Of a DNA stretch of 58,071 nt, positions 1 to 55,694 are shown in pieces (position 1 is the stretch's first letter; each line of letters opens with the position of its first letter). A program made the translations under genes and the position numbers. Origin of the DNA: an uncultured Oscillospiraceae bacterium (lineage in GTDB: Bacteria > Bacillota > Clostridia > Oscillospirales > Oscillospiraceae); assembly GCA_964485125.1 (NCBI GenBank), contig CAZAIF010000001.1:1-58071 (forward strand), given 5' to 3'. Under the pieces are notes generated by a model that saw nothing but the letters and a program-made list of their open reading frames with translations, had not been told where the DNA came from and searched no databases.

Positions 1-238
1 ATGGCCGGGGGTCATAAGAAAGCAGTATGCCGGAATCGCCAGCAGCTGTGCGTTGCTAGGCTTAGACAACAACTCCCGGCTTGCCAGCTTCTTCAGAAAT
101 GGAAACCATTGCAAGGTACACCCCCATGCGGTTAGAGCAAATAGGAGGAGTTGTTTTGTGATAACTGGAGAATTAAGCGGATCAGACAGAGGAACTTTCT
201 CTCTTTCTGTCAAAGCTTGATTTGCAAGAAATAAATCA

Positions 239-267
239 TTGACATTGCAAAAATAAAGGAGTAATAT
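239..267 (+). promoter_or_regulatory. sigma-A-type promoter for the amino-acid ABC transporter operon
   Basis: TTGACA 239-244, 17-nt spacer, TAATAT 262-267, read directly. Confidence 0.55.
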
Positions 268-327
268 GTGCCCAGAAGGAAAAAGAGCAATAAAAATGAA
301 TTTTTAGAATTGTATAAATTGCATTTT

Positions 328-376
328 TGACAAAGGCGTTGGGATGTTTTCAATCCGACGCCTTTGTCATTTTATG
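328..376 (+). terminator. terminator-like hairpin in the 5' leader (possible attenuator)
   Basis: 12-bp stem TGACAAAGGCGT (328-339) / ACGCCTTTGTCA (358-369) followed by TTTTAT; lies about 35 nt before the start codon at 404. Confidence 0.45.
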
Positions 377-403
377 AAACAAGCGTGAAAGAGGGAATGC
401 CAG

Positions 404-1174: not shown

Positions 1175-1180
1175 TCTGAC

Positions 1181-1957
1181 ATGGAAAAGGAGACAAGAAC
1201 ACGGGCTGAGATCCCTTATGATGGCCCAGTGATCGGGCTTCGGAACCTGAAGAAACGCTTTGGCGACCACCTGGTGCTAGAGGATGTCTCTTTTGACTTG
1301 AACCAGGGGGATGTAGTTTCGGTGATCGGATCGTCCGGATCGGGAAAATCCACCCTTCTGAGGTGCATTAACCGGCTGGAGGTTCCGACCTCAGGTCAGG
1401 TTCTCTATCACGGAGAAGAGATTCCATCCGGCACGGCAGCATTAAATCGATTTCGTGCTAAGGTGGGAATGGTGTTCCAAAACTTTAACCTGTTCAATAA
1501 TATGACGGTGATGGAGAACTGCATGGCGGGGGTTCGGCTGGTCAAGCATGTGGACAAGGATGAGGCCGCTGAGATCTGCATGCGGTATCTGACCAAGGTG
1601 GGGATGGCGCCATACAGAAAGGCGAAGCCGCATCAGCTTTCCGGAGGAATGAAGCAGCGGGTAGCCATTGCCCGGGCTCTGGCCATGGAGCCGGAAGTGA
1701 TCCTCTTTGACGAGCCCACCTCTGCTTTGGATCCGGAGATGGTTGGGGAAGTGCTTCAGGTCATGAATACTTTGGTCGCAGAGGGGCTGACGATGATTAT
1801 TGTTACCCACGAGATGGCCTTTGCCCGAGATGTCTCCACCCGAACCATTTTTATGGATAATGGGTATATTGTGGAGGAGGGTTCGCCAGAGCAGCTGTTC
1901 AACGATCCGATCCAGGAGAGAACCCGTATGTTTTTGTCCCGGTTCATCTCAGGCTGA
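1181..1957 (+). CDS. amino-acid ABC transporter ATP-binding protein (GlnQ-like)
   Basis: Walker [10 protein letters not shown], signature LSGGMKQR, Walker [13 protein letters not shown]-loop VTHEM. Confidence 0.93.
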
Positions 1958-1999
1958 GAGCGCACATTCCGCGCCGGACGATAAGAAAAGGAGGACATT

Positions 2000-2842
2000 A
2001 TGAAGAAGATCATTGCCTTAATGCTGAGTTTCGCTTTTGTGCTTACCCTGACCGCCTGTTCCAGCACATCCGGCCAAGAATCGGACGAAGAGAAGCGGGA
2101 AGTGCTTCGGGTTGCCATGTCCGCCGATTACGCACCCTTTGACTGGATTCAGGAGGACGACTCCAATGGGGCGGTGCTCACCACCAACGGATCGTACATG
2201 AACGGCTATGATGTGCTCATCGCCCAACTGATTGCAGATGAGCTGGACATGGATCTGGAGATTACGCAGATTGACTGGGACGGCCTGATTATGTCCGTCA
2301 CCTCGGATCGGGTAGACTGTGCCATCGCAGGAATGAGCATCACCAGTGAGCGAGCTCAGTCAGTGGATTTCACAGATCCCTATTACAATGCGGATATCGT
2401 GGCCGTGGTCAGCGGGGACAGTGTCTACGCTTCGGCCACGAACCTGACGGATCTTGAGGGCGGAGTGTTTACCTCTGCGTTGAATACGGTTTGGTACGAT
2501 GTGCTGGATCAGATCACAGAATTTGCCACCAAGGGCACGGCCCTGGATACCTTTGCTGCCATGGTTTCCGCCGTGAATGCGGGCATCATCGACGGATTCA
2601 CCTGTGACTATCCCTCCGCACTCTCTCTGCAAATCACGAACCCCGATTTGGTGATTCTGGACTTTGCCGATGGAGACGGTTTTGAGGTCAGCTCCGAGGA
2701 AACTGATTTGGGCATCGCCTGTCAGCAGGGCAGCGATCTGGTGGAGAAAATCAACGCGATTTTGGCAGAACTAAGTCAGGAGGAGCGGGATGCGCTGATG
2801 GATCAGGCAGTGGAAGCCCAGCCTGCCTCGGTGCTCTCCTGA
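2000..2842 (+). CDS. ABC transporter substrate-binding lipoprotein (family 3, amino acid)
   Basis: Signal peptide plus lipobox LTLTAC; operon context with permease and ATPase. Confidence 0.85.
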   Translation: MKKIIALMLSFAFVLTLTACSSTSGQESDEEKREVLRVAMSADYAPFDWIQEDDSNGAVLTTNGSYMNGYDVLIAQLIADELDMDLEITQIDWDGLIMSVTSDRVDCAIAGMSITSERAQSVDFTDPYYNADIVAVVSGDSVYASATNLTDLEGGVFTSALNTVWYDVLDQITEFATKGTALDTFAAMVSAVNAGIIDGFTCDYPSALSLQITNPDLVILDFADGDGFEVSSEETDLGIACQQGSDLVEKINAILAELSQEERDALMDQAVEAQPASVLS

Positions 2843-2942
2843 GCGGAATCCAAACACTGAAGCAGAGCGGTGCGCAGAGGGCGGAAAGCCGGTGCATTGC
2901 CCTGGTCGGAACTCTCAGCGCGAGCCGCGAGCAAAGAGGGGA

Positions 2943-4316
2943 ATGATCCATATCAAGTCCGTGGAAAGAAATTTTGGGAAATATGTCTTATCTTCCATGG
3001 TCACCATGTTTTTGCAGAGTGCCTATTCTATTGTAGACGGCCTGTTTGTCAGCAATTTGATCGGCGATACTGCATTGTCTGCCATCAATGTGGCCTGGCC
3101 CATCATTGCCGTTATCACTGCTATTGGAACGGGAATCGGATGCGGCGGTGCAGTTATCATGTCCACCCAGCAAGGGGCCGGCCATCAGGAGGAATCCAAC
3201 CTGGTTCGAGGCAATGTCATTGTGGCCCTGCTGGCCTCGGGCGTGTTTTGCTCCGGGGTGGCGCTGATTGTGCTGAAGCCGGTGCTGCGGCTAATGGGGG
3301 CGCAGGATGAGCTGCTGCGTTACGCCATTGCCTATGGCCGGATCATGCTGGTCGGCGGAACGGTGCAGGTGCTCTCCTGTGGACTGACTCCTTTGCTGCG
3401 CAACAACAACCGGGCTGTCACGGCCATGATGATTATGATCGGCGGTCTGTTGTGCAACCTGGGGCTGGATTTTATCTTTATGGCGATCTTTCAGTGGGGA
3501 ATCGAAGGAGCCGCCGCCGCATCCCTGTGCGCACAGTTCTTTACCGTAATTGCCTGCCTGACCATTTTGGCGGGCAAACGGGAGGATCCGCTCCGGCCTG
3601 GACAGCTGCGGCCGCGCCGCAGATTTTGGCTGCGTATTTTTTTCAATGCAATCTCTCCCTTTGGAATTTCCCTGACCCCGTCCCTTCTCATTCTCTATCA
3701 CAATGTGGCGTGTATGAGCTCCGGCAGCGATTTGGCGGTAAACGCATATGCCCTGATCACCTCCACCGTAGGCTCCTATCGGATTTTGCTCATCGGAGTA
3801 GCGGACGGCATCCAGCCTCTGGCCAGCTATGCCAACGGCGCCCAGGACTACGACGGGCTACGACGGATTCGCAACAAATCCATCCTATGCGCTGTGACCG
3901 TCAGCGTGCTGCTCTTCCTGTTTACCGTATGCACAGCCCGGTTTTATCCCAGCCTGTACGGTTATGTGGGTGAGTCTGCGGAGTTGGGACTCCATGCGGT
4001 GCTGCTTACCTCGGCTCAGCTCATTTTCACCGGCCTGGTTCGGGTAACAAATTCCTTTTTCTATGCTGTGGGAAAGATCAACTACTCCCTGTTCATGATC
4101 TACTTTGACCCACTGGTGTCAACGCCTCTTATGCTGGTGATTCTACCCCGGCTATGGGGTCTGGACGGAATCTGGCTGACTGCCGTGGTGACTCAGCTGA
4201 TGCTCAACATCGTGGCGGTCTGGATGTTCTTTCGGTATAGCCGGCAGTTGCGCAGGACAGAACAAATACAGCGGCAGAAAATTCAGTATCAGAAAAGGAG
4301 TGTAGCGCACAAATGA
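2943..4316 (+). CDS. MATE family efflux transporter
   Basis: Start moved to ATG 2943 (MIHIKS...); N-terminus 'FGKYVLSSMVTMFLQSAYSIVDGLFVSNLIGDTALSAINVAWP' is typical of MATE; about 12 TM segments. Confidence 0.85.
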   Translation: MIHIKSVERNFGKYVLSSMVTMFLQSAYSIVDGLFVSNLIGDTALSAINVAWPIIAVITAIGTGIGCGGAVIMSTQQGAGHQEESNLVRGNVIVALLASGVFCSGVALIVLKPVLRLMGAQDELLRYAIAYGRIMLVGGTVQVLSCGLTPLLRNNNRAVTAMMIMIGGLLCNLGLDFIFMAIFQWGIEGAAAASLCAQFFTVIACLTILAGKREDPLRPGQLRPRRRFWLRIFFNAISPFGISLTPSLLILYHNVACMSSGSDLAVNAYALITSTVGSYRILLIGVADGIQPLASYANGAQDYDGLRRIRNKSILCAVTVSVLLFLFTVCTARFYPSLYGYVGESAELGLHAVLLTSAQLIFTGLVRVTNSFFYAVGKINYSLFMIYFDPLVSTPLMLVILPRLWGLDGIWLTAVVTQLMLNIVAVWMFFRYSRQLRRTEQIQRQKIQYQKRSVAHK

Positions 4317-5323
4317 ACATTGTCGTGATAGAGGAGAATATTGCCCAGCCGGACATCACCACCGGGGAGCTGACCCGGAGATGGGAGCGGCTCAAGAGCC
4401 TTCCGGGTGTCGGCGAGGTGCGGATCGTGGCTCCGGAGCGCTATCCATCTGTGGCAGAGTTGAGCAATCTGTCTGCCGGCGCCGATGCCCTGTTTGGGGT
4501 TTGGATCGGGTCGGATCTGATGAACGCTAAATTCCTGTCGGATCATCCAAAGCTGCGGTATATCGCGACCCTGGGACACGGCTGGGAACCCTTTGACGTA
4601 GAGCTGACCCGGCGGCACGGATTGACTATCTCCAACACCATCTATGGCGGGCAGACCATCGCGGAATATGCTTTTGCCCTTTTGATGGAGGTGTGCCACC
4701 ATGTGTCTGTCCATGACCGCCGGGTGAAGACGCTGGATTGGAGCCGGCCGGAGAACCGGGAGGAATTTTGCCTGGCGGTCACCCCGCAGATTGAGTTGTT
4801 CGGCAAGACTATGGGGATTGTTGGGCTGGGGGAGATCGGATACGCCATGGCCCGGATGGCATATGGTTTCGGAATGCACGTGGTGGCGCACAGTGTTCAT
4901 AGGAAGCAGGGAGAGAAATATCGGTTTGTAGAGCAGACCGACAGCCTGGATGAGCTGCTGGAGCGCAGCGACGTTATCTCTCTGCATATGCCCCATACGC
5001 CTGCCACTGAGCGCATAATCGATGGTCGGGCCATCGAAAAAATGAAGGACGGAGTCATCCTCATCAATACCGCACGGGGGGCGCTGCTGGACGAGCAGGC
5101 GCTGGCCGAAGCTCTGTACACTGGTAAGGTTCGGGCTGCCGGACTGGACGTGCTGACGGAGGAGCCGCCCCGGCACGGGTCGCCTCTTCTGTCCGCGCCC
5201 AATATAATGATCACGGGACATATCGCCTGGCTAACCCGTGAAGCCCGCCTTCGGGCCATCGACATGTCCATTGACAACTTTGCGGCTTACTTGGAGGGCA
5301 AGCCCTGCTCCAGGATCAATTGA
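4313..5323 (+). CDS. D-isomer-specific 2-hydroxyacid dehydrogenase family protein
   Basis: NAD-binding 'GIVGLGEIGYAMARMA', catalytic region 'LINTARGALLDEQAL...AGLDV...EP', 'ITGHIAW'. Confidence 0.85.
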   Translation: MNIVVIEENIAQPDITTGELTRRWERLKSLPGVGEVRIVAPERYPSVAELSNLSAGADALFGVWIGSDLMNAKFLSDHPKLRYIATLGHGWEPFDVELTRRHGLTISNTIYGGQTIAEYAFALLMEVCHHVSVHDRRVKTLDWSRPENREEFCLAVTPQIELFGKTMGIVGLGEIGYAMARMAYGFGMHVVAHSVHRKQGEKYRFVEQTDSLDELLERSDVISLHMPHTPATERIIDGRAIEKMKDGVILINTARGALLDEQALAEALYTGKVRAAGLDVLTEEPPRHGSPLLSAPNIMITGHIAWLTREARLRAIDMSIDNFAAYLEGKPCSRIN

Positions 5324-5372
5324 TGCAGAATGGCACACGTTCTAAAATACTGTAGAGAAAGAGGAAATTCCA

Positions 5373-6467
5373 GTGAAAATCAAAGAATTATTACGTAGGA
5401 GCATTCAGGAGAAGCCTACCAGCAAACGGGGGGCGCGGCAAAAGACCTCAACGCCCAAAGGGGTTACCCGGATGAACCTAAATGAGAACGCCTATGGTAT
5501 GTCCGACCGAGTCAAGCAGGTTCTGTTGGAAAATCTGGCGGACAATTATATGTATCAGGATTTTTATGCGGTGGAGATTCGAAAGAAGCTGGCCTCCCGT
5601 TACGGGCTCACACCGGATCATATCCTCGTCGGTTCCGGTTCCAGCGCGGTGATCGATATGCTGGGCGAGGTGTTCATCAACTACGGCGATGAGATCGTTT
5701 ACTGCGCTCCCTCTTATGAGGCGTTTCCCGACATGATCAGCGACAATGGAGGGGTACGGGTGGAAGTTCCGCTGACCAAGGACTATAAATTTGATCTGGA
5801 CAAGATGCTGGACGCCATTACGGATCGAACCAAGATGGTCATTGTAGTCAATCCAAACAATCCCACCGGGTCGTATGTCCCCTCCGCGCGAGTGGAGGAG
5901 TTTGTGCGCAAGCTTCCCGCCCATGTCCTGGCCGTAGTGGACGAGGCATACTTTGAATATGTGGACGCTCCCGGGCATTATAGCCTGATTGACATGGTGC
6001 GGTCGGGCTACGACAAACCGCTGATTGTCCTGCGCACCTTTTCAAAAATCTATGGCTTAGCAGGGTTGCGTATCGGCTACGCGGCGGCGGATCCGGTTAT
6101 CATCGACGAGATGATGAAGGCGTGCCAGGCCTGGAACGTCAGCCGCATCGCCACCCTTGCCGCCGAAATCGCCCTGGATGATGAGGACTACGTCCAGACG
6201 ATTAAGCAGCTCAACATCAAAAACCGCACCATAGTCAGTCAGGGTTTGAGAGAGCTGGGCTGCTTTGTGGTCGAACCTGCGGGCAACTTCATCTATTTTG
6301 ATTCGCACAGGGATGCTAAAGCTGTGGCACAAAAGCTAGCGGAGCGGAAAATCCTGATCGGAGCGCCGGATACCTTTAACCGTGTGACCGTTGGCAGAGA
6401 GGAGCAGAACGAGGCGTTTCTCATCGCAATGAAGGAAGTGTTAATGGAGCTTCCACTCAGGTCGTAA
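5373..6467 (+). CDS. histidinol-phosphate aminotransferase family (class II PLP) protein
   Basis: 'MNLNENAYG', 'NPNNPTG', 'VVDEAYFEY', 'RTFSKIYGLAGLRIGY' (PLP lysine motif); GTG start. Confidence 0.82.
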   Translation: MKIKELLRRSIQEKPTSKRGARQKTSTPKGVTRMNLNENAYGMSDRVKQVLLENLADNYMYQDFYAVEIRKKLASRYGLTPDHILVGSGSSAVIDMLGEVFINYGDEIVYCAPSYEAFPDMISDNGGVRVEVPLTKDYKFDLDKMLDAITDRTKMVIVVNPNNPTGSYVPSARVEEFVRKLPAHVLAVVDEAYFEYVDAPGHYSLIDMVRSGYDKPLIVLRTFSKIYGLAGLRIGYAAADPVIIDEMMKACQAWNVSRIATLAAEIALDDEDYVQTIKQLNIKNRTIVSQGLRELGCFVVEPAGNFIYFDSHRDAKAVAQKLAERKILIGAPDTFNRVTVGREEQNEAFLIAMKEVLMELPLRS

Positions 6468-6503
6468 GGCAGCAAAAAATTACTAAAAAAAGGAGTGCCC
6501 TGT

Positions 6504-7106
6504 ATGGAACATTGCTATATCAACATCAACCGGCAGTTTGGAAGCCTGGGTCGCCCCATCGCCATCAAACTGGCGGAAATACTCCAGATCGAGTATTATG
6601 ACCGGGACATCGTGGAAGAAACGGCCAAGAAGATGAACATTCCCCTCTCTCAGGCCAGTGACCAGGATGAGAGCGTGGCGTCCAAGTTCGGCCACATGCT
6701 TTTTCCCCTGGGCAGTGGCAGCAGTGAAAGTCAAGAGAAAATGTTTGACGTCCAGACTCAAATTATCCAAAACCTGGCGGCCAAAGGATCCGCAATTTTT
6801 GTGGGTCGCTGCGCAGATTATATTCTTCAGAACTATAATTGCCTCAATGTGTTTATCTATGCGCCCAAGGCCAAGCGCTATCTGAACTGTGTCAACTCCC
6901 TGGGGATGAGTCCCACGGAGGCGAAACAGATGATTGAAAAGGTGGACAAGTCGCGAAATCGCTACTGGATGAAATATGCCAAGCATCTACCGTCTGATCC
7001 GGAGCACGCCCATGTGATGCTGGACAGCAGCCTGTTCGGTGTGTCAGGAACCGCAGAGTTGCTGGCCACCATTGTAAGGGAACACTTTTTCAACGAGAAT
7101 CTGTAG
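6504..7106 (+). CDS. cytidylate kinase-like family protein
   Basis: 'ININRQFGSLGRPIAIKLAEILQIEYYDRDIVEE'; start set at ATG 6504, 8 nt after AAAGGAG. Confidence 0.7.
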   Translation: MEHCYININRQFGSLGRPIAIKLAEILQIEYYDRDIVEETAKKMNIPLSQASDQDESVASKFGHMLFPLGSGSSESQEKMFDVQTQIIQNLAAKGSAIFVGRCADYILQNYNCLNVFIYAPKAKRYLNCVNSLGMSPTEAKQMIEKVDKSRNRYWMKYAKHLPSDPEHAHVMLDSSLFGVSGTAELLATIVREHFFNENL

Positions 7107-7144
7107 AACAGATACACGGCGGAGCGCCGCTGGAAACTGGGACA

Positions 7145-7419
7145 GTGGGGCGACACAGCGGAGGAGGCGACACCGTGAAGGCGAAGAAGATTTTCCTGCG
7201 CTGGCTGCTTCCGGCGGCCCTGGCGGCGGGGGTGCCGTTGATCTGCGCCATGGGCCCCGGGGACTTCACCGGCAACGGTCATTTCATCGTGGTCACCGGC
7301 TATGACGGGGAGGGCTTCTCCATCCGTGATCCCAACAGCCCCAGCGCAGCGCCAGGACCTGGAGCTTCGAGGAGCTCAGCGGCCGGATCATGAACCTCTG
7401 GGCTTTCTCGGCGATGTAA
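7145..7419 (+). pseudogene. truncated, frameshifted remnant of a C39-like cysteine peptidase domain protein
   Basis: Only a C-terminal-like piece is present: 'PLICAMGPGDFTGNGHFIVVTGYDGEGFSIRDPNS'. The reading then switches frame to '...SARTWSFEELSGRIMNLWAFSAM*' (stop 7417-7419). There is no N-terminal part and no RBS. Confidence 0.55.
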
Positions 7420-7749
7420 TTAAATGGAAACCATGTAAACGGCGTGCAGCGCACGGGGAACTTTTCCCTGTGCGCCGCGCCGTCTATCTGCACAAAAGAT
7501 TCCGGATGAAGGGGACAAAACTATGAAAAAGATCTGATTTTGTTCAAAAAAGACTGAACTGAGTTGTATCAATAATTATATTCTACTATACAGTAAAAGT
7601 ATGTTATTTTTGACGATTAATGTTTTAAATTTCTGTGAATAGAATGCGTTAAACCGGTTTTTTTTCGAAAAAGTTAGAAATTTTTCTTCACATCATGTAA
7701 CATTGTACAAAACGGCCTGACTAATAGGTATAAAAACTGTACATTTTTC

Positions 7750-7778
7750 TTGCAATTACCACCGGGAGGGGTTATAAT
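7750..7778 (+). promoter_or_regulatory. promoter of the sugar ABC transporter operon
   Basis: TTGCAA 7750-7755, 17-nt spacer, TATAAT 7773-7778. Confidence 0.6.
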
Positions 7779-7835
7779 AAACCCATTCCACAAACTGCTT
7801 TTAGCAAGAAGCATTGAAAGGGAAAAAGGGGGTGC

Positions 7836-9395
7836 TTGAGCTTGAGTAAAGGCGATACGTTTATCGAGCTCAAAGACATTGTCAAGCTGTTCCCCGGCGT
7901 GCGGGCGCTGGACGGTGTCTCTTTCGACATTCGAGAGGGCGAGGTTCATTCTCTGTGCGGCGAGAACGGCGCTGGCAAATCGACACTGATCAAGGTGATG
8001 ACCGGCGTCCACCAGCGGGACGGGGGCGATTACCTGATCGACGGAATGTCCGTCAACTTCAGCTCCACCACGGAGGGCATCGCCGCCGGCGTGTCCTGCG
8101 TGTATCAGGAGTTGTCCATCGCGCCGCAGCTGGACGTGGCCCAGAACCTGTTCATCGGCAACCTGCCCATGAAGGGCGGCCTGGTGGATCACAAGACCCT
8201 GTATGCCAAGACGGCGGAGATTCTGAAAGAGCTGGACATGAACATCTCGCCCCGGACCATCGCCGGCGACCTGTCCGTGGGCCAGCAGCAGATGATCGAG
8301 ATCGGCCGGGCCCTGACCCGGAACGCCCGGGTCATCATCATGGACGAACCCACCTCGTCCCTGTCCGAGGCGGAGACCGAGACCCTGTTCAACGTGATCC
8401 GCAAGCTGGTGGACCGGAACATCTCCATCATCTACATCAGCCACAAGCTGGACGAGGTCATGTTCCTCTCCGACCGGATCACTGTCATCCGGGACGGCAA
8501 GAACATCATCAGCAAGTCCAAGAGTGAGTTTACCCAGGATGAGCTGATCGCCAACATGATCGGCCGCCCCCTGGAGAACCTCTACCTGAAGGAGCCCGCC
8601 GAGATCACTACCCCCATGCTGGAGGTCAAGCACCTGACCCGCAAGGGCGTCTTCCAGGACGTCTCCTTCACCGTCCGCAAGGGCGAGGTCGTGGGCTTCT
8701 TCGGCCTGGTGGGCGCCGGCCGCAGCGAGATCATGCGGGCGGTCTTCGGCGTCGATAAGTATGACTCCGGCGAGGTGCTGGTGGACGGCAGGAAGCTCCG
8801 GGGCGGCAATCCCGCCTCCGCCATCTCCGCCGGCATCGGCTTCTGCACCGAGGACCGGAAGAAGGAGGGGTTGGCCCTGCGGCTGACCATCCTGCTGAAC
8901 ATGACTCTGGTGCGGATGCCCCTGCTCAGCAAGCTGGGCGTCATCCAGCGCAAGGCCCAGCGCTCCGCTGCCGACGAGTACATGAAATCCATCTCCATCA
9001 AGGCCCCCTCGGTCAACCAGCTGGTGGGCAACCTCTCCGGCGGCAACCAGCAGAAGGTGGTTGTGGCCAAATGGCTGATGATGAACCCCAAGGTGCTCAT
9101 CGTGGATGAGCCCACCCGGGGCATTGACGTGGGCTCCAAGGCGGAGATCTACGGCCTGCTCAGTGATCTGGCCAAGCAGGGGATGGCCATCGTCGTGGTC
9201 TCCTCCGAGATCGAGGAAATTATGGGCATCTGCGACAGCGTGGTCACCATTTTCGAGGGCAAAAAGACCGCCCAGCTGGACATCACCCCGGCCCTGACCC
9301 GGGAGGAAGTGCTGGCCAACGCCCTGGGCGGCAATTTCCACGCGGACTTCCACGAGGAATTGGGAGCGAGAAAGGAGGCGGAGGAGCATGTCTGA
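7836..9395 (+). CDS. sugar ABC transporter ATP-binding protein (duplicated ABC domains, RbsA/MglA type)
   Basis: Two cassettes: GENGAGKST ... LSVGQQQM ... IIMDEPTS, and GLVGAGRSE ... LSGGNQQK ... LIVDEPTRGID. Confidence 0.92.
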   Translation: MSLSKGDTFIELKDIVKLFPGVRALDGVSFDIREGEVHSLCGENGAGKSTLIKVMTGVHQRDGGDYLIDGMSVNFSSTTEGIAAGVSCVYQELSIAPQLDVAQNLFIGNLPMKGGLVDHKTLYAKTAEILKELDMNISPRTIAGDLSVGQQQMIEIGRALTRNARVIIMDEPTSSLSEAETETLFNVIRKLVDRNISIIYISHKLDEVMFLSDRITVIRDGKNIISKSKSEFTQDELIANMIGRPLENLYLKEPAEITTPMLEVKHLTRKGVFQDVSFTVRKGEVVGFFGLVGAGRSEIMRAVFGVDKYDSGEVLVDGRKLRGGNPASAISAGIGFCTEDRKKEGLALRLTILLNMTLVRMPLLSKLGVIQRKAQRSAADEYMKSISIKAPSVNQLVGNLSGGNQQKVVVAKWLMMNPKVLIVDEPTRGIDVGSKAEIYGLLSDLAKQGMAIVVVSSEIEEIMGICDSVVTIFEGKKTAQLDITPALTREEVLANALGGNFHADFHEELGARKEAEEHV

Positions 9396-10422
9396 GCAAA
9401 AGACAGCTGCGGAGCGCAAGGGCTTCAAGTATTACTGGTCCAAATTCCAGGCCCTGAACGGCAGCTCTCTCTTCCTGGCTATGATCGCCGCCATGATTAT
9501 CTTTGAGGTGATCCTCCAAATCTCCCGGGGCGGCACCGGCGGACTGGTGTTTATCACCCCAAGCAACCTGATGATGATTTTCCGCCAGATGGTCTACATC
9601 GGCATCATCGCCTTCGGCATGACCCTGGTCATGATGACCGGCAACATCGACCTGTCCGTGGGCAATATGCTCACCTTCTGCTCGTGTATTGCGGCGGCCG
9701 TCATGATGAACACCGACAATACGGCGCTGGCGGTGCTGGCTACCCTGGGCATGGGGCTTGTCTGCGGCCTGTTCAACGGTGTGCTGGTCAGCTATGTAAA
9801 GCTGAACAGCTTTATCACTACTCTGGGCGCCAGTTCCATCTACAGCGCCCTGGCTATCTTCGTCTCCGCCGGCACCGTGCTGGTCATTCCCAACGACTGC
9901 GCCATTGGATTCCGGGCCATCGGCCAGCTCCGCTTCGGTCCGGTCAGCATCTTGGTGCTCTGGTTTGTGGCGGTGGCCCTGATTCTGGGCTTCCTGCTCA
10001 GCCGCACCGTCTACGGCCAGCAGCTCTACGCCATCGGATCCAATCCCGTCGCGGCCCGCTTCTCCGGCATCCGATATCAGCGCAATATCACCATCGCCTA
10101 TGCGATTACCGGAATGTGCGTCGGCCTGGCGGCCCTGATCAGGATGTCCAACGTCCTGAGCTCCAATCCCCAGTCCTCCTCCGGCGCGGAGATGGAGGTC
10201 ATCCTGTGCGTGGTGCTGGGCGGCTGTGCGGTCCAGGGCGGCAAGGGCTCCGTCTGGGGCACCGTCATCGGCGTGCTCTTCTACGGCATCCTGTCCGCCG
10301 GCTTCACCAGCCTGCATATGTCCCAGTATCTGCAGTGGGTGGTCATGGGCGCCATCATGCTGTTCGCCCTGTCGCTTGACGTGCTGAAAGGAAAGGGGGT
10401 CAAACTGTGGAAGAGAAAGTGA
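9388..10422 (+). CDS. sugar ABC transporter permease (RbsC/AraH family)
   Basis: 344 aa polytopic; 'GNIDLSVG' motif; 8-nt overlap with the ATPase gene. Confidence 0.9.
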   Translation: MSEQKTAAERKGFKYYWSKFQALNGSSLFLAMIAAMIIFEVILQISRGGTGGLVFITPSNLMMIFRQMVYIGIIAFGMTLVMMTGNIDLSVGNMLTFCSCIAAAVMMNTDNTALAVLATLGMGLVCGLFNGVLVSYVKLNSFITTLGASSIYSALAIFVSAGTVLVIPNDCAIGFRAIGQLRFGPVSILVLWFVAVALILGFLLSRTVYGQQLYAIGSNPVAARFSGIRYQRNITIAYAITGMCVGLAALIRMSNVLSSNPQSSSGAEMEVILCVVLGGCAVQGGKGSVWGTVIGVLFYGILSAGFTSLHMSQYLQWVVMGAIMLFALSLDVLKGKGVKLWKRK

Positions 10423-11411
10423 TGGTCAGCCAGGCCGAGCGCAAAAAGCGCCTGGTGCGGCGCTTCAAAGACAACAACTCCGTGCTGATCCTGGCGATCA
10501 TGCTGTTTGTGGCCTTCGTCTTTGTGGACAGCTATGGCAACGGCTTCTACAACGTGATCCGCTACACCGCCATGTACGGCCCCGTCTGCCTGGGTTTGGC
10601 CCTGGTGATGATCGCCGGCAACATCGACCTGTCCGCCGGCTTCCAGGCCGGCCTGGCCGGCGTCACCTCGGTGATCTGCTTCAACGCGGTCTATAACGCC
10701 TCGGGCAGCCCGGTGCTCTCCCTGGTGGTAAGCATTATCGGCTGCCTGCTGACCGGCATTGTCACCGGTATCATCAACGGCTTCTTCGTGGCGAAGGTCG
10801 GAGTCCCCTCTCTGATTGCCACCATCGCCGCCAACTACGCCTATCAGGGCTTTGTGTTCTACTTTGCCCAGAGCTCCTTCGCCCCGGAGGATGCGGACAT
10901 TGTCAAGCTGTTTGCCAACACCCGGCTCTTCGGCTTCCGGTGGTTTACCCCGTCCGCCATCGCCTTTGTTCTCATCGTCGCGGCGGTCTTCTTCTGGATG
11001 TACAAGACCCGCTTCGGCAACCGGCTCCACGTGGTGGGCGACAATCCGGAGGCCGCCGCCTATGCCGGCATCAGCGTCCGGAATACCGTGTGGGTCTCTT
11101 ATGTCCTCTGCGGCCTGCTCAGCGCCGTCTGCGGCTTTGTCATGGTGTCCAACGCGGGCTACGCCATCTACACCCAGGGCAACAGCCTGTCTACCCTGAC
11201 CATCTCCTGCTGCGTCATCGGCGGCATCAAGATGTCCGGCGGCAAGGGCACCGCCATCCACGTCCTGCTGGGCGTGCTGATCATGCGGGTCATCTCTCAG
11301 ATGATGACCGCCCTGTACCTGGCCCAGTCCTGGGTCAACATGATTACCGGCGCCCTGCTTATTGTGGTGCTGATCATAGACCGGTTCACCTCCAACAAGG
11401 AGGTTGACTGA
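10407..11411 (+). CDS. sugar ABC transporter permease (second RbsC-type subunit)
   Basis: 334 aa polytopic; 'GNIDLSAG', 'GGIKMSGGKGT'; overlaps the upstream permease. Confidence 0.88.
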   Translation: MEEKVMVSQAERKKRLVRRFKDNNSVLILAIMLFVAFVFVDSYGNGFYNVIRYTAMYGPVCLGLALVMIAGNIDLSAGFQAGLAGVTSVICFNAVYNASGSPVLSLVVSIIGCLLTGIVTGIINGFFVAKVGVPSLIATIAANYAYQGFVFYFAQSSFAPEDADIVKLFANTRLFGFRWFTPSAIAFVLIVAAVFFWMYKTRFGNRLHVVGDNPEAAAYAGISVRNTVWVSYVLCGLLSAVCGFVMVSNAGYAIYTQGNSLSTLTISCCVIGGIKMSGGKGTAIHVLLGVLIMRVISQMMTALYLAQSWVNMITGALLIVVLIIDRFTSNKEVD

Positions 11412-11487
11412 CCTATCCCTGTTGACAGTCCGCTCTGGCGGCTTGTCATAGAACATCCCTCGATGCGTATCGAAAGGAAGGAAGAAA

Positions 11488-12606
11488 ATGAAAAAAATCA
11501 GCAAGCTTTTGGCCCTGGTCCTGGCTCTGGCCATGGCCCTGGCCCTGGTTTCCTGCGGAAGCGTCACTGTAGGAACCGGCAGCGACACCTCTGACGATTC
11601 ATCCGTAAACGCTGGAGTCAGCACAGACGACGGTTCGGACGCCAACTCGGAAGACACTTCGGATGACACCGAGGCTGACGATTCCACCGGCGCCCAGGAG
11701 GGCTGCAACATCGACGTGTCCGGCGTGGACCTGACCGGCTACACCATTGGCTATGTCACCATCAACTCCTCCGCTCCCTGGGGCGGCCGCGTGGGCACCG
11801 AGCTGGAGCGTATGGCCACTGAGGCCGGCGCCACCGTCCTCAGCCTGGATGCCGCCACCGTTGCTGACGATGTGACCAACTACTGCCGCCAGATGATCGA
11901 CAACGCGGTGGACGCCCTGTGCGTCTTCGGCGGCGACCCCACCGCCATGGTGGACATCGCAAAGGAGTGCTCCGAGGCGGGCATCCCCCTGTTCCTGTGC
12001 GCCCTTGACGTGGCCGAGGAGGGCCAGGAGTATACCACAGCCTGCATCGGCCCCGACCAGGAGGAAATGTGCTACCAGATCGGGCAGTACATCATTGAGG
12101 AGTTCGGCGCGGATGCCGGCATCAACATAGTCCAGATCTCCGGCGTGCCCTTCCTGATGGACTATCAGCTCCGGGAGGCCGGCTTCGCCCGGGCCATGGA
12201 GGCGACCAACTACAACCTGTATGAGCCCGACTACGCCTACTCCGACCGCGCCGAAGCCAAGACCTTTATGGAGCAGCACATCCAGGCGGATGGCGACGCC
12301 ATCGACGTCGTCATGGGCTTTGACGATGACCTGACCATGGGCGCTGTGACCGCCATTGAGGAGGCCGGCCTGACCGGCCAGATCAAGGTCTACTCCCTGA
12401 CCGGCCAGAACGACGCCATCCAGGCGGTTGCCAACGGCCAGATGGAGCTCACCGTTATGAACCGGGCCGACGACATCGCCGCCGAGACCTGCGTGGCCAT
12501 GTACGAGTACTTCACCACCGGTGAGACCGAGTACTATCACTACACTCCTCTGGTCTACATCACCGCTGATAATGTGGATGAGTACATCGGCAAGGGCGAG
12601 TTCTGA
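11488..12606 (+). CDS. sugar ABC transporter substrate-binding lipoprotein (periplasmic-binding-protein type I)
   Basis: Lipobox LVSCGS, Asp/Ser-rich linker, then a PBP fold-like body; last gene of the operon. Confidence 0.85.
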   Translation: MKKISKLLALVLALAMALALVSCGSVTVGTGSDTSDDSSVNAGVSTDDGSDANSEDTSDDTEADDSTGAQEGCNIDVSGVDLTGYTIGYVTINSSAPWGGRVGTELERMATEAGATVLSLDAATVADDVTNYCRQMIDNAVDALCVFGGDPTAMVDIAKECSEAGIPLFLCALDVAEEGQEYTTACIGPDQEEMCYQIGQYIIEEFGADAGINIVQISGVPFLMDYQLREAGFARAMEATNYNLYEPDYAYSDRAEAKTFMEQHIQADGDAIDVVMGFDDDLTMGAVTAIEEAGLTGQIKVYSLTGQNDAIQAVANGQMELTVMNRADDIAAETCVAMYEYFTTGETEYYHYTPLVYITADNVDEYIGKGEF

Positions 12607-12632
12607 TTCCCCTTCATTGCCAACTGCCAACC

Positions 12633-12667
12633 AAAACGGGAGACGCGCCGCGTCTCCCGTTTTTTTG
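12633..12667 (+). terminator. rho-independent terminator
   Basis: ACGGGAGACGCG / CGCGTCTCCCGT stem followed by TTTTTTT. Confidence 0.85.
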
Positions 12668-12778
12668 TGCCCGCTTTTCCGCCCGGAAGTTTTTCCGCCC
12701 CCGGACCTGAGACCCTATGACCGGGTCCGGGCAAATTCTCACATCGACGCATAAAAGCGAAAAAGTACCCGTCCCCGC

Positions 12779-51244: not shown

Positions 51245-52234
51245 TCAGGCGTAGCCCTCCAGGCCCCGGACGGACACCTCGCCGGAGATCACCGTCTCCC
51301 GGCGGCCGTCCTCATAGCGCACCACCAGGCCGAAGTTGTCGTCCACGTCCTCGGCGAAGGCGTTCTCCTCCCGGCCGCCCCGGATCACCCGCACCGGGCG
51401 GCCCAGGGTGGCGCACCGGGCCCGGTAGCGCTCCACGCTCCAGCCCCCCTGCTGCCAGCGGTTGTACATCTCGTCCACGGCGTTGATGAGCTCCGCCGCC
51501 AGCCGTCCCCGATCCACCCTGTGGCCGGCGGCCATGGCCACGCTTCCGGCCATATCCCGCAGCTCCTGGGGGAAGTCCTCCAGGGCCTGGTTGACGTTGA
51601 CCCCGATGCCCAGCACAATGTACTGCAGCGCGCCGGTTTCCCCCTCCACGCTCATTTCGGTGAGGATGCCGCAGATCTTCCGCCGCTCCAGCAGCACGTC
51701 GTTGGTCCACTTGATCTGGGGGGACAGGCCGCAGGCGGCCTCCACCGCGTCGCACACGGCCACCGCCGCGCAGGCGGTCAGATTGACCGCCCGTTCCGGG
51801 GGCGCCTGGGGCCGCAGCAGGAAGGAGATGTAGATCCCGGCGCCCGGCGGGGACTGGAAGGAGCGGCCCAGCCGGCCCCGGCCGGCGGTCTGCTCGTCGG
51901 CCACCGCCACGGTGCCCTCCAAGGCCCCCTCCAGGGCCATGCGCTTGAGCAGGTTGTTGGTGGAGTCCACCTGTTCCAGGCAGATCAGCTGCCCCCCCAG
52001 CCCCTGGGCGCGCAGCCAGGGGCGGATGGTGCCCTCGCTGAGCCGGTCGGGCCCCGCCACCAGCCGGTAACCCCGGTTGGTGGCGGACTGGATGACATAG
52101 CCCTCCCGGCGCAGGGCAGCCACCGCCTTGCTCACTGCCGCCCGGGAGATGCCCAGGGCGCGGCTGATGTCCTCGCCGGAGCAGTACTGCCCGGCGTGCT
52201 GTTTCAATATGGAGAGGATGGACTCCCGGCTCAT
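51245..52234 (-). CDS. birA: bifunctional biotin operon repressor / biotin-[acetyl-CoA-carboxylase] ligase
   Basis: N-terminal HTH 'SGE.IS..LGISRAAV.K....LR..GY.I', ligase 'QTAGRGR.GR.F.SP.G.G.Y.S', 'KWTND'. Confidence 0.9.
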   Translation of the reverse strand: MSRESILSILKQHAGQYCSGEDISRALGISRAAVSKAVAALRREGYVIQSATNRGYRLVAGPDRLSEGTIRPWLRAQGLGGQLICLEQVDSTNNLLKRMALEGALEGTVAVADEQTAGRGRLGRSFQSPPGAGIYISFLLRPQAPPERAVNLTACAAVAVCDAVEAACGLSPQIKWTNDVLLERRKICGILTEMSVEGETGALQYIVLGIGVNVNQALEDFPQELRDMAGSVAMAAGHRVDRGRLAAELINAVDEMYNRWQQGGWSVERYRARCATLGRPVRVIRGGREENAFAEDVDDNFGLVVRYEDGRRETVISGEVSVRGLEGYA

Positions 52235-52384
52235 GGCCTCAGCTCCTTTTGCCTTGTCGCTTTAGTGTATCATAACCCGGCTGGATGTGCAATTGTTTTG
52301 CCATATGGTTTGCTGATCGCTTCATTTTACAGGGCAAATGGGATTGCAATTTGCCCCGTGGTATGGTAGGATACCCGCTGACCG

Positions 52385-52496
52385 GTTCTCCACACCGGTC
52401 CAACCGGCGCGGGCATGGGACATCAGAGCCCTTCCGCGCCGCTGTGCGGTCTATGTTTCGCCGTACTCTAAATATGAAAAATGGAGGTATCCCGCA
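52385..52496 (+). ncRNA. candidate preQ1-responsive riboswitch (class II/III-like) in the queT leader
   Basis: TTGCAA-17-TAGGAT promoter at 52349-52377; GACCGG/CCGGTC hairpin whose loop CTCCA is complementary to TGGAG of the queT RBS; genomic context only, the consensus was not verified. Confidence 0.3.
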
Positions 52497-53045
52497 ATGA
52501 GAAACAACCTGACCCGCCGGCTGTGCACCGGCGGCGTGATCGCGGCGCTCTACGCCGTGCTCACCCTGGCCCTGCCCATGCTGTCCTATGGACCGGTCCA
52601 GATCCGCTTTTCCGAGGCCCTGACCGTGCTGCCCTTCTTCCTGCCCGAGGCCATCCCCGGCCTGGCGGTGGGCTGCTTTGTGGCCAACCTGATCGGCTCC
52701 CCCTACGCCCTGGACTGGATGGTGGGCACCCTGGCCACCCTGCTGGCCGCCCTCTGGACGTCCAAGCTCCGGCACAGATGGCTGGCCCCCATGCCTCCGG
52801 TGATCTGCAATATGGTCATCGTCGGGGCGGAGATCGCCTGGTTTGAGGGGGGCTTCACCGCCGCCTTCTTCCCCGCCTGGGCCTATAACGCCGTTACCGT
52901 GGGGCTGGGGGAACTGCTGGCCTGCTATATCCTGGGGATGATCCTGGTCAATCTGCTGCCCCGGATCCCCTATTTCCGCCAGATGATGCCCGAGGGGCGC
53001 CTGGCCCGGCTGGACGGGGGCTGGGGCGCCGCCGCGGCCAAATAG
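52497..53045 (+). CDS. queT: queuosine-precursor transporter QueT
   Basis: 182 aa, 5-6 TM, 'LTR.L..GGVIAALY.VLT........YG.VQ.R.SEAL..L....P.AI.GL..GC...NL..S'. Confidence 0.8.
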   Translation: MRNNLTRRLCTGGVIAALYAVLTLALPMLSYGPVQIRFSEALTVLPFFLPEAIPGLAVGCFVANLIGSPYALDWMVGTLATLLAALWTSKLRHRWLAPMPPVICNMVIVGAEIAWFEGGFTAAFFPAWAYNAVTVGLGELLACYILGMILVNLLPRIPYFRQMMPEGRLARLDGGWGAAAAK

Positions 53046-53119
53046 AGAATACGATAGAACCAGTCGCTACAGCGGCCCGCGCAGTGGAGTGCGCGGGCCG
53101 CGTCTGTTGTGGAAAGAGA

Positions 53120-53148
53120 TTGTGCTTTTGTGTCCGGGGATTTATAAT
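53120..53148 (+). promoter_or_regulatory. dedicated promoter of the TIR gene
   Basis: TTGTGC 53120-53125, 17-nt spacer, TATAAT 53143-53148; a GC-rich hairpin (53075-53104) separates it from queT. Confidence 0.55.
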
Positions 53149-53192
53149 AGGAGAAGCCCGTTCCCCAGGGGAGCGGGGCGGGAAAGGAAGGG

Positions 53193-54419
53193 ATGGATTT
53201 GGAATCCTATCAGATTTTTATCAGCTACCGGCGGGACGGGGGCGAGTTCTTCGGGAAGATCCTCTACGACAAATTGAACGCCAAGGGCTACAAGGTGTTC
53301 TTTGACGTGGAGTCCATGCGCTCCGGGCCCTTCAATACCCAGCTGTACAGCGTCATCGACCAGTGCCAGGACTTCCTGCTGATCCTGTCCCCCCACGCCC
53401 TGGACCGGTGCGCCAACCCCGGGGACTGGGTGTGCAGCGAGATCAGCTATGCCATGCAAAAACAGAAAAACATCCTGCCCATCCTCATGCGGGATTTCAC
53501 CTGGCCGGCCCAGCTGCCCGCCTCCATCGCCCAGCTGCCCCAGTACGAGTGCGAGGAGTTCTCCCGCACCTCCAGCCAGGAGCACATTGACGCCTCCGTC
53601 GCCCGGATCTGCAACCGGTTTTTGAAGTCCCGGCCAGCCGGGACCTACCAGTACCGGCTGGCGGACCGGGAGTACTATCCCATCAAGACCCCCTGGAAGC
53701 AGCGCTACAAGTCCTCTTCCGACACCCCCGGGGTGTTTATGGGGGTGCTGGCCTACTTCGCCCGGGCCGGCGGCGGCCAGTCCTGGCGGCCCGAGGAGGG
53801 GTGGGACACCCTGGAGCAGCTGCTGGAATACACCCCCTTCGTCCCCCAGCCCGGCTGGTACAGGGCCAACCGGGGGCGGCTGGAGGGGATGAGGGAGAAG
53901 GCCGCCCAGCTCAGGCGCTACCAGAACCACGGCGAGGACGACGTCTGCTTTTACGCCCAGGCGGTGCAGTATGCCTACGGCTGCCTGACCACCCTCTCCG
54001 GGGAGCTGCTCCGGCGGGCCTCGCCGCTGGGGCTGCGGCATGTGCTGTGCTATTGCATCGACTGGCCCGAAGACCGGTACGGTGAAATGACCTCCGCCTG
54101 CGGCGAGGCGATGCGGGAACAGTTTACCAGCTGCATCCCCCTGGCTTTCACCGCCTGGCCCAACTACTACAGCCGGAAGGCCGGCGCAGGGGGACCCGGC
54201 GGCCGGGTGACCGCCGAAGAACGGCAGAACTTCACCTCCCACGCCATCCTGCTGTTCGACTTCATGCTGGACTGGGGGATGCTGATCAACGACTCCTTCC
54301 AGGACGTCCCCCACCGGACGGCGGTGCGGGACCAGCTGCTGTGCTACTACAAGTGGCTGAAGAAGAACAAGCTCTTTCTGCCCCGGGAGCTCCAGGAGCG
54401 GATCTACCGGGACCTGTGA
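53193..54419 (+). CDS. TIR-domain protein with uncharacterised ~260-aa C-terminal domain
   Basis: aa 6-~140: 'IFISYRRDGGEFFGKILYDKLNAKGYKVFFDVESMRSG..F...L...I..C.DFLLILSPHAL.R.....DWVCSEI..A' matches the TIR pattern, including the W-x-C-x-E glutamate (E83, nt 53439-53441). No motif is recognised in the rest; no TM or signal peptide. Confidence 0.85.
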   Translation: MDLESYQIFISYRRDGGEFFGKILYDKLNAKGYKVFFDVESMRSGPFNTQLYSVIDQCQDFLLILSPHALDRCANPGDWVCSEISYAMQKQKNILPILMRDFTWPAQLPASIAQLPQYECEEFSRTSSQEHIDASVARICNRFLKSRPAGTYQYRLADREYYPIKTPWKQRYKSSSDTPGVFMGVLAYFARAGGGQSWRPEEGWDTLEQLLEYTPFVPQPGWYRANRGRLEGMREKAAQLRRYQNHGEDDVCFYAQAVQYAYGCLTTLSGELLRRASPLGLRHVLCYCIDWPEDRYGEMTSACGEAMREQFTSCIPLAFTAWPNYYSRKAGAGGPGGRVTAEERQNFTSHAILLFDFMLDWGMLINDSFQDVPHRTAVRDQLLCYYKWLKKNKLFLPRELQERIYRDL

Positions 54420-54460
54420 GGGCGGGTTGGGCGAAACTTTTTCAGAAAGGCAGATTTTTC

Positions 54461-54488
54461 TTGACTTTCCCCCGGATTCCGGTATAAT
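54461..54488 (+). promoter_or_regulatory. promoter of rpsF-ssb-rpsR
   Basis: TTGACT 54461-54466, 16-nt spacer, TATAAT 54483-54488; about 95-nt leader. Confidence 0.6.
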
Positions 54489-54583
54489 AAAAAAGCTAGT
54501 GCGCCCATGGGGCCGCTATGCCGATTCTATCCTTGCCTCTGACTGAGTGCGGAGGCCATTTGTCCATAAGGAGGTGCAAATCA

Positions 54584-54880
54584 ATGGCTAAGGTCAATGC
54601 AAACTATGAGGCGATGCTGATCATCAACCCCGCCGTGGGTGAGGAGGCCATCGCCGCTGTGGTGGAGCGTTTCAAGTCTCTGATCGAGAAGAACGGCACC
54701 CTGGCCGAGGTTGATGAGTGGGGGACCCGCCGTCTGGCGTATGAGATCAACCACATCAACGAGGGCTACTATGTGCTGATCAGCTTCAACTCCGCCCCCG
54801 ATCTGCCCGCTGAGGTTGAGCGTATCGCCAACATCACCGACGGCGTGATCCGTTCCCTGGTCGTCTGCAAGGACGAGTAA
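54584..54880 (+). CDS. rpsF: 30S ribosomal protein S6
   Basis: 'YE.M.I..P........V.ERFK..I...G......EWG.R.LAYEI......GYY'; ATG 54584 after AAGGAGG. Confidence 0.93.
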   Translation: MAKVNANYEAMLIINPAVGEEAIAAVVERFKSLIEKNGTLAEVDEWGTRRLAYEINHINEGYYVLISFNSAPDLPAEVERIANITDGVIRSLVVCKDE

Positions 54881-54895
54881 AAAGGAGCGTTTTCC

Positions 54896-55375
54896 ATGTT
54901 AAATCGAATTATCCTGATGGGCCGTCTGACCCGTGACCCGGAGCTGCGCCACACCGGCAGCGGCACCCCGGTGGCCTCATTCTCCCTGGCCGTGGAGCGG
55001 GATTTCCGGGACAAGGCCAGCGGCCAGCGGGCCACCGACTTCATCGACATCGTCGCCTGGCGCTCCACCGGCGAGTTCGTCTCCAAGTACTTCACCAAGG
55101 GCCGCATGGCCGTGGTGGAGGGCCGGCTGCAGATCCGCGACTGGCAGGATCGGGACGGCAACAAGCGCCGCAGCGCCGAGGTGGTGGCCGACAACGTCTA
55201 TTTCGGCGACTCCCGCCGGGACGGCGACAGCCAGGACGGCGGCTATACCCCCTCCTCCTCCGGCTATTCCTCCGCTCCCTCCAGCTATGCGCCTCCGGCC
55301 AACCAGAGCTTCGGCTCCGGTCCGGTCAGCGACTTCGCTGAGCTGAGCGACGACGACGGCGAGCTGCCCTTCTGA
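54896..55375 (+). CDS. ssb: single-stranded DNA-binding protein
   Basis: 'MLNRIILMGRLTRDPELR.T.SG..VA.F.LAV.R', acidic tail 'DDDGELPF'. Confidence 0.95.
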   Translation: MLNRIILMGRLTRDPELRHTGSGTPVASFSLAVERDFRDKASGQRATDFIDIVAWRSTGEFVSKYFTKGRMAVVEGRLQIRDWQDRDGNKRRSAEVVADNVYFGDSRRDGDSQDGGYTPSSSGYSSAPSSYAPPANQSFGSGPVSDFAELSDDDGELPF

Positions 55376-55460
55376 GGGCCGCCGCCCGGACAAGACTTCT
55401 GACCGGGGGCCAGGACAGGCCCCGGTTTGCTCAAATATCTCATAGATAGGAGGTTCCGTT

Positions 55461-55694
55461 ATGGCTTTTGACCGCAATCGCTCCCGTAAGCGCAGAAAAG
55501 TCTGCGTGTTCTGCGTGGATAAGATCCAGACCATCGACTACAAGGACACCAACAAGCTGCGCCGCTATATCTCCGAGCGGGGGAAGATCCTGCCCCGCCG
55601 CACCACCGGCACCTGCGCCATGCACCAGCGCCAGCTGACCACCGCTATCAAGCGGGCCCGTCAGGTTGCCCTGCTGCCCTATGTGCTGGACTGA
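55461..55694 (+). CDS. rpsR: 30S ribosomal protein S18
   Basis: 'RRKVC.FC........IDYKD...L...[30 protein letters not shown]'. Confidence 0.95.

Follow-up and report, generated by a model that had tools for sequence, protein, structure and literature searches.

What would a gene for a solitary TIR-domain protein be doing between two housekeeping units of a bacterial chromosome? The question is raised by a locus in 58,071 nt of DNA from an uncultured Oscillospiraceae bacterium (assembly GCA_964485125.1, contig CAZAIF010000001.1, forward strand positions 1-58,071), the whole of which we call the window. Here a gene encoding a protein of 408 amino acids lies between queT and the rpsF-ssb-rpsR operon. 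An earlier note on this DNA, made from the sequence without database searches, recognised a TIR domain at the N-terminus and left the C-terminal part unassigned. We find that the TIR is of the SARM1 type, being closer over the whole domain to the TIR of SARM1 than to any other solved TIR, and that it is joined directly to an undescribed helical domain (henceforth the C-domain). The reading that we favour, to which we give about an even chance, is that an accessory gene encodes a soluble, self-regulated switch that cleaves nicotinamide adenine dinucleotide (NAD+), i.e. a one-gene NADase in which the TIR is the effector and the C-domain the sensor that gates it. What is new is this single-gene arrangement of a known effector class with an undescribed domain.

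The open reading frame of 408 codons claimed in the earlier note is present (53193 to 54419, + strand), and the start at 53120 given there merely adds a proposed promoter. All of the TIR motifs quoted in the note are found, i.e. IFISYRRDGG (amino acids 8-17), GYKVFFD (32-38), LLILSP (62-67) and DWVCSEI (78-84), and the significant TIR match that it expected is obtained above threshold with both Pfam TIR_2 (PF13676; E = 6.2e-14, 53 bits against a cut-off of 28, amino acids 8-110) and Pfam TIR (PF01582; 26.9 bits against a cut-off of 21.3). The protein belongs to a family of 22 full-length members (33-51% identity, the nearest homologue being at 51%), and has all 38 of the residues that are invariant in the family. 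The named members come from Acutalibacteraceae, Eubacterium and Oscillospiraceae metagenome-assembled genomes (MAGs), and are annotated just as ‘TIR domain-containing protein’ or ‘hypothetical protein’.

A profile of the 22 members (alignment A1) was searched against all PDB sequences. It matches the TIR of human SARM1 with E = 8e-40 and that of Caenorhabditis elegans TIR-1 with E = 5e-38, while the best solved TIR outside SARM1 and TIR-1 is that of a TIR-SAVED protein at 1e-3, all others having E ≥ 1e-3. Using the AlphaFold model of the full-length protein (predicted local distance difference test (pLDDT) 83.8, predicted TM-score (pTM) 0.67), the best 25 Foldseek matches all belong to SARM1 or TIR-1; where the matched entry is an isolated TIR domain, the TM-score normalised by the target is about 0.8. 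In a direct BLASTP alignment of 142 columns (E = 3e-25), the window protein shares 35% identity with the TIR of human SARM1; the corresponding identity is 36-42% for the 22 family members and 35-46% across the whole set of related Clostridial TIRs. These SARM1-specific matches of profile and fold place the TIR more exactly than did the earlier note, which overlooked its SARM1-type identity.

The DWVCSEI segment, encoded at 53424-53444, pairs with DWVHKEI of SARM1, the Glu of which is E642. The assignment of Glu83 to the catalytic position, made in the note, is thus upheld. All 22 members keep the equivalents of SARM1 Y568, R569, R570, D594, G601, F603, W638 and E642 (= E83), and 21 of them keep that of E596. 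Eight of the ten SARM1 active-site and BB-loop residues checked are kept, with K597 replaced by Ser and H685 variable. SARM1 is an established NADase (PMC7075850, PMC9092222), and from the residues that are kept we infer a putative catalytic cleavage of NAD+ through Glu83.

The likeness to SARM1 and TIR-1 takes the form of a nearly gap-free alignment of the full domain, in which the catalytic Glu, the W-x-x-x-E motif, the ISYRR box and the Asp, Glu and Gly of the BB-loop are kept. By contrast, the window protein comes from a bacterial host, has neither ARM nor SAM domains, and carries at the N-terminus the TIR that is C-terminal in SARM1. Because the ARM-SAM-SAM-TIR architecture is absent it is not a SARM1 orthologue; rather it belongs to the bacterial clade in which the SARM1 TIR nests. 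The nesting of the SARM1 TIR within a mainly bacterial clade, and its presumed acquisition from bacteria, were described by Zhang et al. (2011), as cited and re-confirmed in PMC13142454; a broad survey found no bacterial SARM1 homologues (PMC7075850). The literature searched yielded no work on the function of bacterial TIRs in the SARM1-type clade.

The same TIR occurs with many alternative C-termini, as would be expected of an effector that is combined with varying sensor modules. Among the matches listed, 98 proteins (P0023-P0120) share it. Most are TIR-transmembrane-ectodomain proteins of about 600 amino acids (e.g. P0046, P0047, P0088 and P0031), in which the SARM1-type TIR is 50-67% identical as far as a conserved LKSRP linker; 82 of the 98 listed have a hydrophobic segment directly after the TIR, followed by a large extracytoplasmic part. 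The window protein differs from these in being soluble, and its C-domain is unrelated to theirs, since hhalign comparison with the C-termini of the other proteins sharing the TIR gave a probability below 1%. We note that some of the transmembrane proteins end in a PDZ-like domain, and that their topology, which resembles that of Toll-like receptors, is plentiful in gut Clostridia, some clusters having 150-380 member sequences.

The C-domain comprises 261 amino acids (148-408). Modelled alone with AlphaFold2 from an alignment of 19 sequences (A2) it gives a confident structure (pLDDT 89.7, pTM 0.91), in which a short N-terminal beta motif (Y-x-L-x-x-x-E-Y-Y-x-I-K-T-P...Y-K) is followed by a bundle of about 12 helices; the terminus reads CYYKWLKKNK-x-x-LP-x-E-x-Q. 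A long hydrophobic helix (amino acids 341-368) packs onto the final helices of the model. Insertion of this helix into a membrane was considered and rejected, as it is the sole hydrophobic helix, has acidic residues within it and is buried in the modelled bundle. No membrane-spanning segment is predicted, the top 19-residue Kyte-Doolittle mean being 1.33. The note had described the C-terminal part as rich in Trp, Tyr and Cys; this holds for Trp (3.1%) and Tyr (7.3%), but Cys is just mildly enriched (2.7%). Its view that this part matches no recognised family stands. Foldseek with the C-domain model found nothing in the PDB (best E = 0.6) or BFVD (best E = 0.14), and a sequence profile run against the PDB was negative, as were searches of Pfam (with 19 members), PADLOC and PHROGs.

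The C-domain is rare. An exhaustive hidden Markov model (HMM) search of 1.84 billion representative proteins returned 42 clusters at E ≤ 1e-3, and a metagenome scan added only two more loci. It occurs in three architectures, i.e. fused to a TIR in proteins of about 400 amino acids, alone in proteins of about 235-265 amino acids, and once in a DUF4062-STAND protein (P0148). The solo genes are genuine; P0121, for example, is located between rhamnosidase and GHL10 genes in an Oscillospiraceae MAG. Solo and TIR-fused forms are interleaved in a rough neighbour-joining tree, which suggests repeated fusion or loss of the domain. The C-domain is an independent module, and its solo and STAND occurrences were overlooked in the earlier note.

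P0148 has 1363 amino acids, with DUF4062, a STAND NTPase (NPHP3_N/NACHT), a helical region and the C-domain at 1092-1350 (E = 2.8e-10), i.e. at the C-terminal position where STAND proteins carry the sensor. A recent preprint reports DUF4062 to be a TIR-like NADase in antiphage defence (bioRxiv 10.64898/2026.05.01.722283). P0148 thus resembles the Avs and bNACHT-like effector-STAND-sensor proteins, starting with a TIR-like NADase domain and ending with the same C-domain as the window protein. By contrast, the window protein joins the effector directly to the putative sensor; it has no NTPase of the NACHT or NB-ARC type that would relate it to STAND or NLR proteins, only its distant relative P0148 having one. 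The gene for P0148 (L034:8001-12092) has neighbours at L034:1737-6909 that encode a PP2C phosphatase, a 1389-amino acid fusion of protein kinase and Card1 endonuclease, a RyR-domain protein, a Clp protease and a TraG-like coupling protein. These surroundings look like a conflict-gene cluster on a conjugative element.

The window gene is accessory. A scan for QueT over one genome per GTDB species gave 26 loci, and the three closest genomes (L008, L009 and L010) keep the order MBL-birA-queT-rpsF-ssb-rpsR without the TIR gene, the gap between queT and rpsF being about 220-250 bp. Comparison of this interval, proposed as a test in the note, thus shows that the gene is not a core gene. Similarity to L008 stops just past the queT terminator hairpin and resumes at about 54444, at GCAGATTTTTCTTGACTTTCC, just before the rpsF promoter. 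BirA is 83.8% identical between the window and L008, compared with about 79% for every other pair, and the two are sister lineages, mutually closest. Given this relationship one gain is more parsimonious than several losses; deletion in the relatives, rather than insertion here, was rejected because the sisterhood of the window and L008 would require at least two losses. The comparison points to a single gain in the window lineage, after its split from the closest sequenced relative. The note had judged the codon bias native rather than recently acquired. The composition is indeed native, the GC content at third codon positions (GC3) being 0.91 compared with 0.81-0.95 in neighbouring genes, but synteny shows a gain in the lineage; a GC3 like that of the neighbours makes native codon bias true as a description, and is no proof of ancestry.

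The identical protein with identical neighbours is found in two further assemblies, on independent Logan contigs. Around the insertion we found no direct or inverted flanking repeats above chance-sized matches. When window 53072-53140 is compared with L008:6565-6600, the queT hairpin is kept and its T-tract is replaced in the window. The string CTTTTGTG recurs 27 nt further along in the window, so the insertion junction may be composite.

The neighbourhoods of seven full-length homologues having long contigs were compared. No neighbour is conserved across all seven, and the contexts are unrelated, but six of the seven have at least one further TIR-domain gene within 8 kb. These TIR-gene clusters lie at L045:3925-7548, L005:1-1679 and 11362-12696, L046:6692-7762, L006:12318-14861, L007:11978-13381 and L003:11901-12887. 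At L045 three more TIR genes lie next to one another; one of them is a TIR-Ser/Thr-kinase fusion with a PADLOC match to PD-T4-6 (3e-35). No ThsA-like gene is visible in the clusters. Next to P0010 (L003:4976-8323 and 9730-11792) a double-AAA+/FtsH-like protein of 1115 amino acids, which matches PADLOC IetA (1.5e-38), a transglutaminase-core protein and a PrsW protease are followed by another TIR gene, and the neighbourhood may be an uncharacterised multi-gene system. Taken together, the homologue contexts lean, if indirectly, towards conflict systems.

TIR domains must assemble to form active sites, both in SARM1 and in bacteria. In the switch that we favour, the N-terminal SARM1-type TIR would be the effector. 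Several TIRs brought together would create composite active sites in which catalysis falls to Glu83, and the assembled sites would hydrolyse or cyclise NAD+. The C-terminal helical domain would be a regulatory or sensor module that holds the TIR inactive. On binding a trigger, perhaps a small molecule or a protein from a phage or mobile element, it would permit or drive oligomerisation. The outcome would be depletion of NAD+ leading to growth arrest or abortive infection, or an ADP-ribose (ADPR)-derived signal. A defence role for the window protein is plausible. The gating is proposed by analogy with the autoinhibition exerted by the ARM domain of SARM1. CapRel is a fused toxin-antitoxin sensor, and CapRel(SJ46) may share the same logic, an N-terminal toxic enzyme being restrained by a C-terminal trigger-sensing domain; it differs in having no relation of sequence or fold to the window protein, and in being a pyrophosphokinase where an NADase is proposed here.

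Several observations weigh against this switch. How the TIR and C-domain are oriented to each other is uncertain (the full-length model has a pTM of 0.67, compared with 0.91 for the C-domain alone), and for this reason the autoinhibition, and with it the gating of the TIR by the C-domain, is conjectural. SARM1 K597, N679 and H685 are not conserved in the family, and H685 is a position that has been probed by mutation in SARM1 TIR structures (H685A, entry 6o0u). The window gene lies in housekeeping surroundings with no defence island, and ordinary metabolic neighbourhoods surround the solo C-domain genes, so that the C-domain is not tied to defence. The PADLOC matches near the homologues are to generic kinase and AAA+ domains, and are therefore merely suggestive. 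For the window protein itself, PADLOC and NCBIfam give generic TIR matches below the family cut-offs; the PADLOC check proposed in the note therefore finds a TIR but no family-level system. As to carriage on mobile elements, we found no homologue among IMG/VR viral contigs or INPHARED phages, and in PLSDB plasmids three weak TIR-only matches and nothing more.

A more far-reaching version would make the C-domain a new fold and a dedicated trigger sensor that gates a SARM1-type NADase in one-gene abortive infection, the counterpart of ARM autoinhibition in SARM1 built from unrelated parts, and reused in the DUF4062-STAND protein. The Clostridial clade (35-46% identical to human SARM1, mostly TIR-transmembrane-ectodomain proteins) would then be the bacterial stock of the animal SARM1 TIR. 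We regard this whole set of propositions as unlikely.

The comparison with described systems is as follows. The best PADLOC and NCBIfam matches are to the Thoeris proteins ThsB and ThcB, in the TIR part only; the score is 47.6 bits against NCBIfam ThcB4, where the cut-off is 220, and 39 bits against PADLOC ThsB. Unlike Thoeris, no ThsA-type effector (SIR2, SLOG, Macro or transmembrane) is adjacent to the window gene, and the C-domain is different. With respect to CBASS, Pycsar and type III CRISPR systems, the C-domain has no match to SAVED, STING, CARF or cNMP-binding domains, and there is no cyclase gene nearby. Foldseek matches to the TIR-APAZ protein of SPARTA are weak (E ≥ 4e-3) and can be put down to the TIR, given that nothing in the PDB matches the C-domain by itself; there is no Ago gene near the window gene. 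We note that TIR fusions without an assigned function are common in bacteria.

SARM1 is regulated by metabolites, and the C-domain might likewise be a metabolite-binding regulator. The protein would then be a non-defence enzyme of NAD+ metabolism or signalling, making ADPR or an isomer of cyclic ADPR (cADPR), or lowering NAD+, in the physiology of the cell itself, such as in stress, dormancy or interaction with its gut surroundings. The housekeeping surroundings and native-like composition of the window gene favour this, as do the metabolic neighbourhoods of the solo C-domain genes, and many active TIR NADases of gut commensals that have no assigned defence role release ADPR or cADPR variants (PMC9092222). 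On the other hand, none of the three nearest species has the gene and the family is very rare, so that any such physiological role would be dispensable, and the homologues cluster with other TIR, kinase, AAA+ and mobile-element genes. We consider a non-defence enzyme possible, if doubtful.

The further TIR genes at six of the seven homologue loci would also be consistent with a non-catalytic adaptor or scaffold that joins other TIR proteins, the window copy being an orphan cut off from its partners. K597 and H685, which are important in SARM1, are not kept, and conservation of the Glu does not always track with activity (PMC7075850). Against this, the members of the family are just 33-51% identical and yet none departs from the catalytic Glu, the W-x-x-x-E Trp or the BB-loop Gly, which argues for selection on catalysis, and the reading frame is intact although there is no other TIR in the 58-kb window. 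An adaptor is improbable.

In polymorphic toxins the toxic domain sits at the C-terminus, whereas the TIR is N-terminal here. A secreted effector or toxin is very improbable on this account and others. The window protein lacks a signal peptide and a membrane segment, and no domain for secretion or delivery can be recognised in it, by which it differs from secreted and polymorphic NADase toxins; nor is there an immunity or secretion-system gene, or any small gene, adjacent to it. In favour are the existence of bacterial TIR/NADase effectors of this kind (PMC9092222) and the gut community to which the organism belongs. A decaying remnant that no longer has a function, as might be suggested by an orphan gene with a weak promoter match whose nearest homologue is merely 51% identical, is also most improbable, given a 408-codon frame that is intact and identical on independent contigs, retention of all 38 invariant residues and confident models for both domains.

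The features of the locus, the closest genomes and the homologue loci are collected in Table 1. Upstream of the gene are birA and queT, and downstream are rpsF, ssb, rpsR, a radical-SAM gene and mutY; the genes within 10 kb encode Dus, an Opp transporter, a thioesterase, MBL, BirA, QueT, S6, SSB, S18, the radical SAM protein and MutY. The housekeeping flanks reported in the note are therefore real (queT by PF06177, and rpsF-ssb-rpsR). It had also reported the lack of a partner, and we likewise found no ThsA, SIR2, SLOG, STING, SAVED, Argonaute or NLR gene within 10 kb; with an HMM specific to the family, no further TIR gene was detected in the window.

Table 1. Features at and around the TIR gene (window positions), with related genomes and homologue loci.
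Feature	Position	Strand	Basis or remark
Complete gene, SARM1-type TIR fused to uncharacterised helical C-domain, 408 amino acids plus stop	53193..54419	+	Uninterrupted ATG-initiated reading frame
TIR domain, amino acids 1-147 (core about 6-145)	53193..53633	+	Pfam, SARM1 profile match, Foldseek
Glu83 codon, putative catalytic glutamate	53439..53441	+	Invariant in 22/22 family members; aligns with SARM1 E642
C-domain, amino acids 148-408	53634..54416	+	Confident AlphaFold2 model; no family or fold match
queT, upstream housekeeping neighbour	52497..53045	+	PF06177; orthologues at 86-95% identity
rpsF-ssb-rpsR operon, downstream housekeeping neighbour	54584..55694	+	
Segment of about 1.34 kb missing from the three nearest syntenic genomes, limits approximate	53102..54443	+	tblastn maps, intergenic alignment
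queT terminator hairpin, left edge of insertion; inverted repeat I6	53072..53101	+	T-tract degraded compared with L008, L009 and L010
Possible own promoter, TTGTGC-17 nt-TATAAT, weak -35	53121..53149	+	Read from sequence
rpsF promoter TTGACT-16 nt-TATAAT, right edge, intact after insertion	54461..54488	+	Conserved in L008-L010
L008			QueT 95% identical to window
L009			QueT 90% identical to window
L010			QueT 86% identical to window
P0011			Three other TIR-domain genes, one a TIR-Ser/Thr-kinase fusion
P0020			Two other TIR-domain genes
P0010			One other TIR-domain gene
P0016			One other TIR-domain gene
P0017			One other TIR-domain gene
P0019			One other TIR-domain gene

The promoter that the note assigned to the gene is weaker than was claimed. 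Its -10 element (TATAAT at 53144-53149) is perfect, but TTGTGC matches the -35 consensus at only three of six positions, and a consensus promoter scan did not report it. Between the TIR gene and the rpsF promoter there is no terminator-like site, and transcripts could therefore continue into the ribosomal operon.

An Rfam scan of 52200-54700 found no family, and specifically no preQ1 riboswitch and no ribosomal leader. preQ1 riboswitches often control queT genes; the region upstream of queT (52235-52496) has neither a preQ1 riboswitch nor any other Rfam family at E ≤ 0.1. The 5′ leader of rpsF (54489-54583) is near-identical in the window and L008-L010 while the surrounding intergenic DNA has diverged, and it too matches no Rfam family at E ≤ 0.1. 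A possible role is that of an autoregulatory ribosomal-protein leader outside current models. At the far end of the window, positions 1-8000 have 49-56% GC compared with 60-70% elsewhere. The genes there are ordinary (an amino-acid ABC transporter, MatE, a 2-hydroxyacid dehydrogenase, an aminotransferase and a cytidylate-kinase-like protein), with no rRNA, and this part may have been acquired as a block or result from a chimeric assembly.

Inhibitors of the SARM1 TIR are under study, and inhibitor-bound SARM1 TIR structures are among the PDB and Foldseek matches of the window protein. For work on how a SARM1-type active site is regulated, the family provides a small soluble protein of just two domains. 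As a sensor module the C-domain is a new candidate, having no known fold relative and occupying the position of a sensor in a STAND protein. If the protein proves to be ordinary, it would be one more TIR fusion in the accessory gene pool of gut Clostridia. For the organism, the locus indicates that the gene for a potentially lethal NADase can insert directly upstream of an essential ribosomal operon and persist there.

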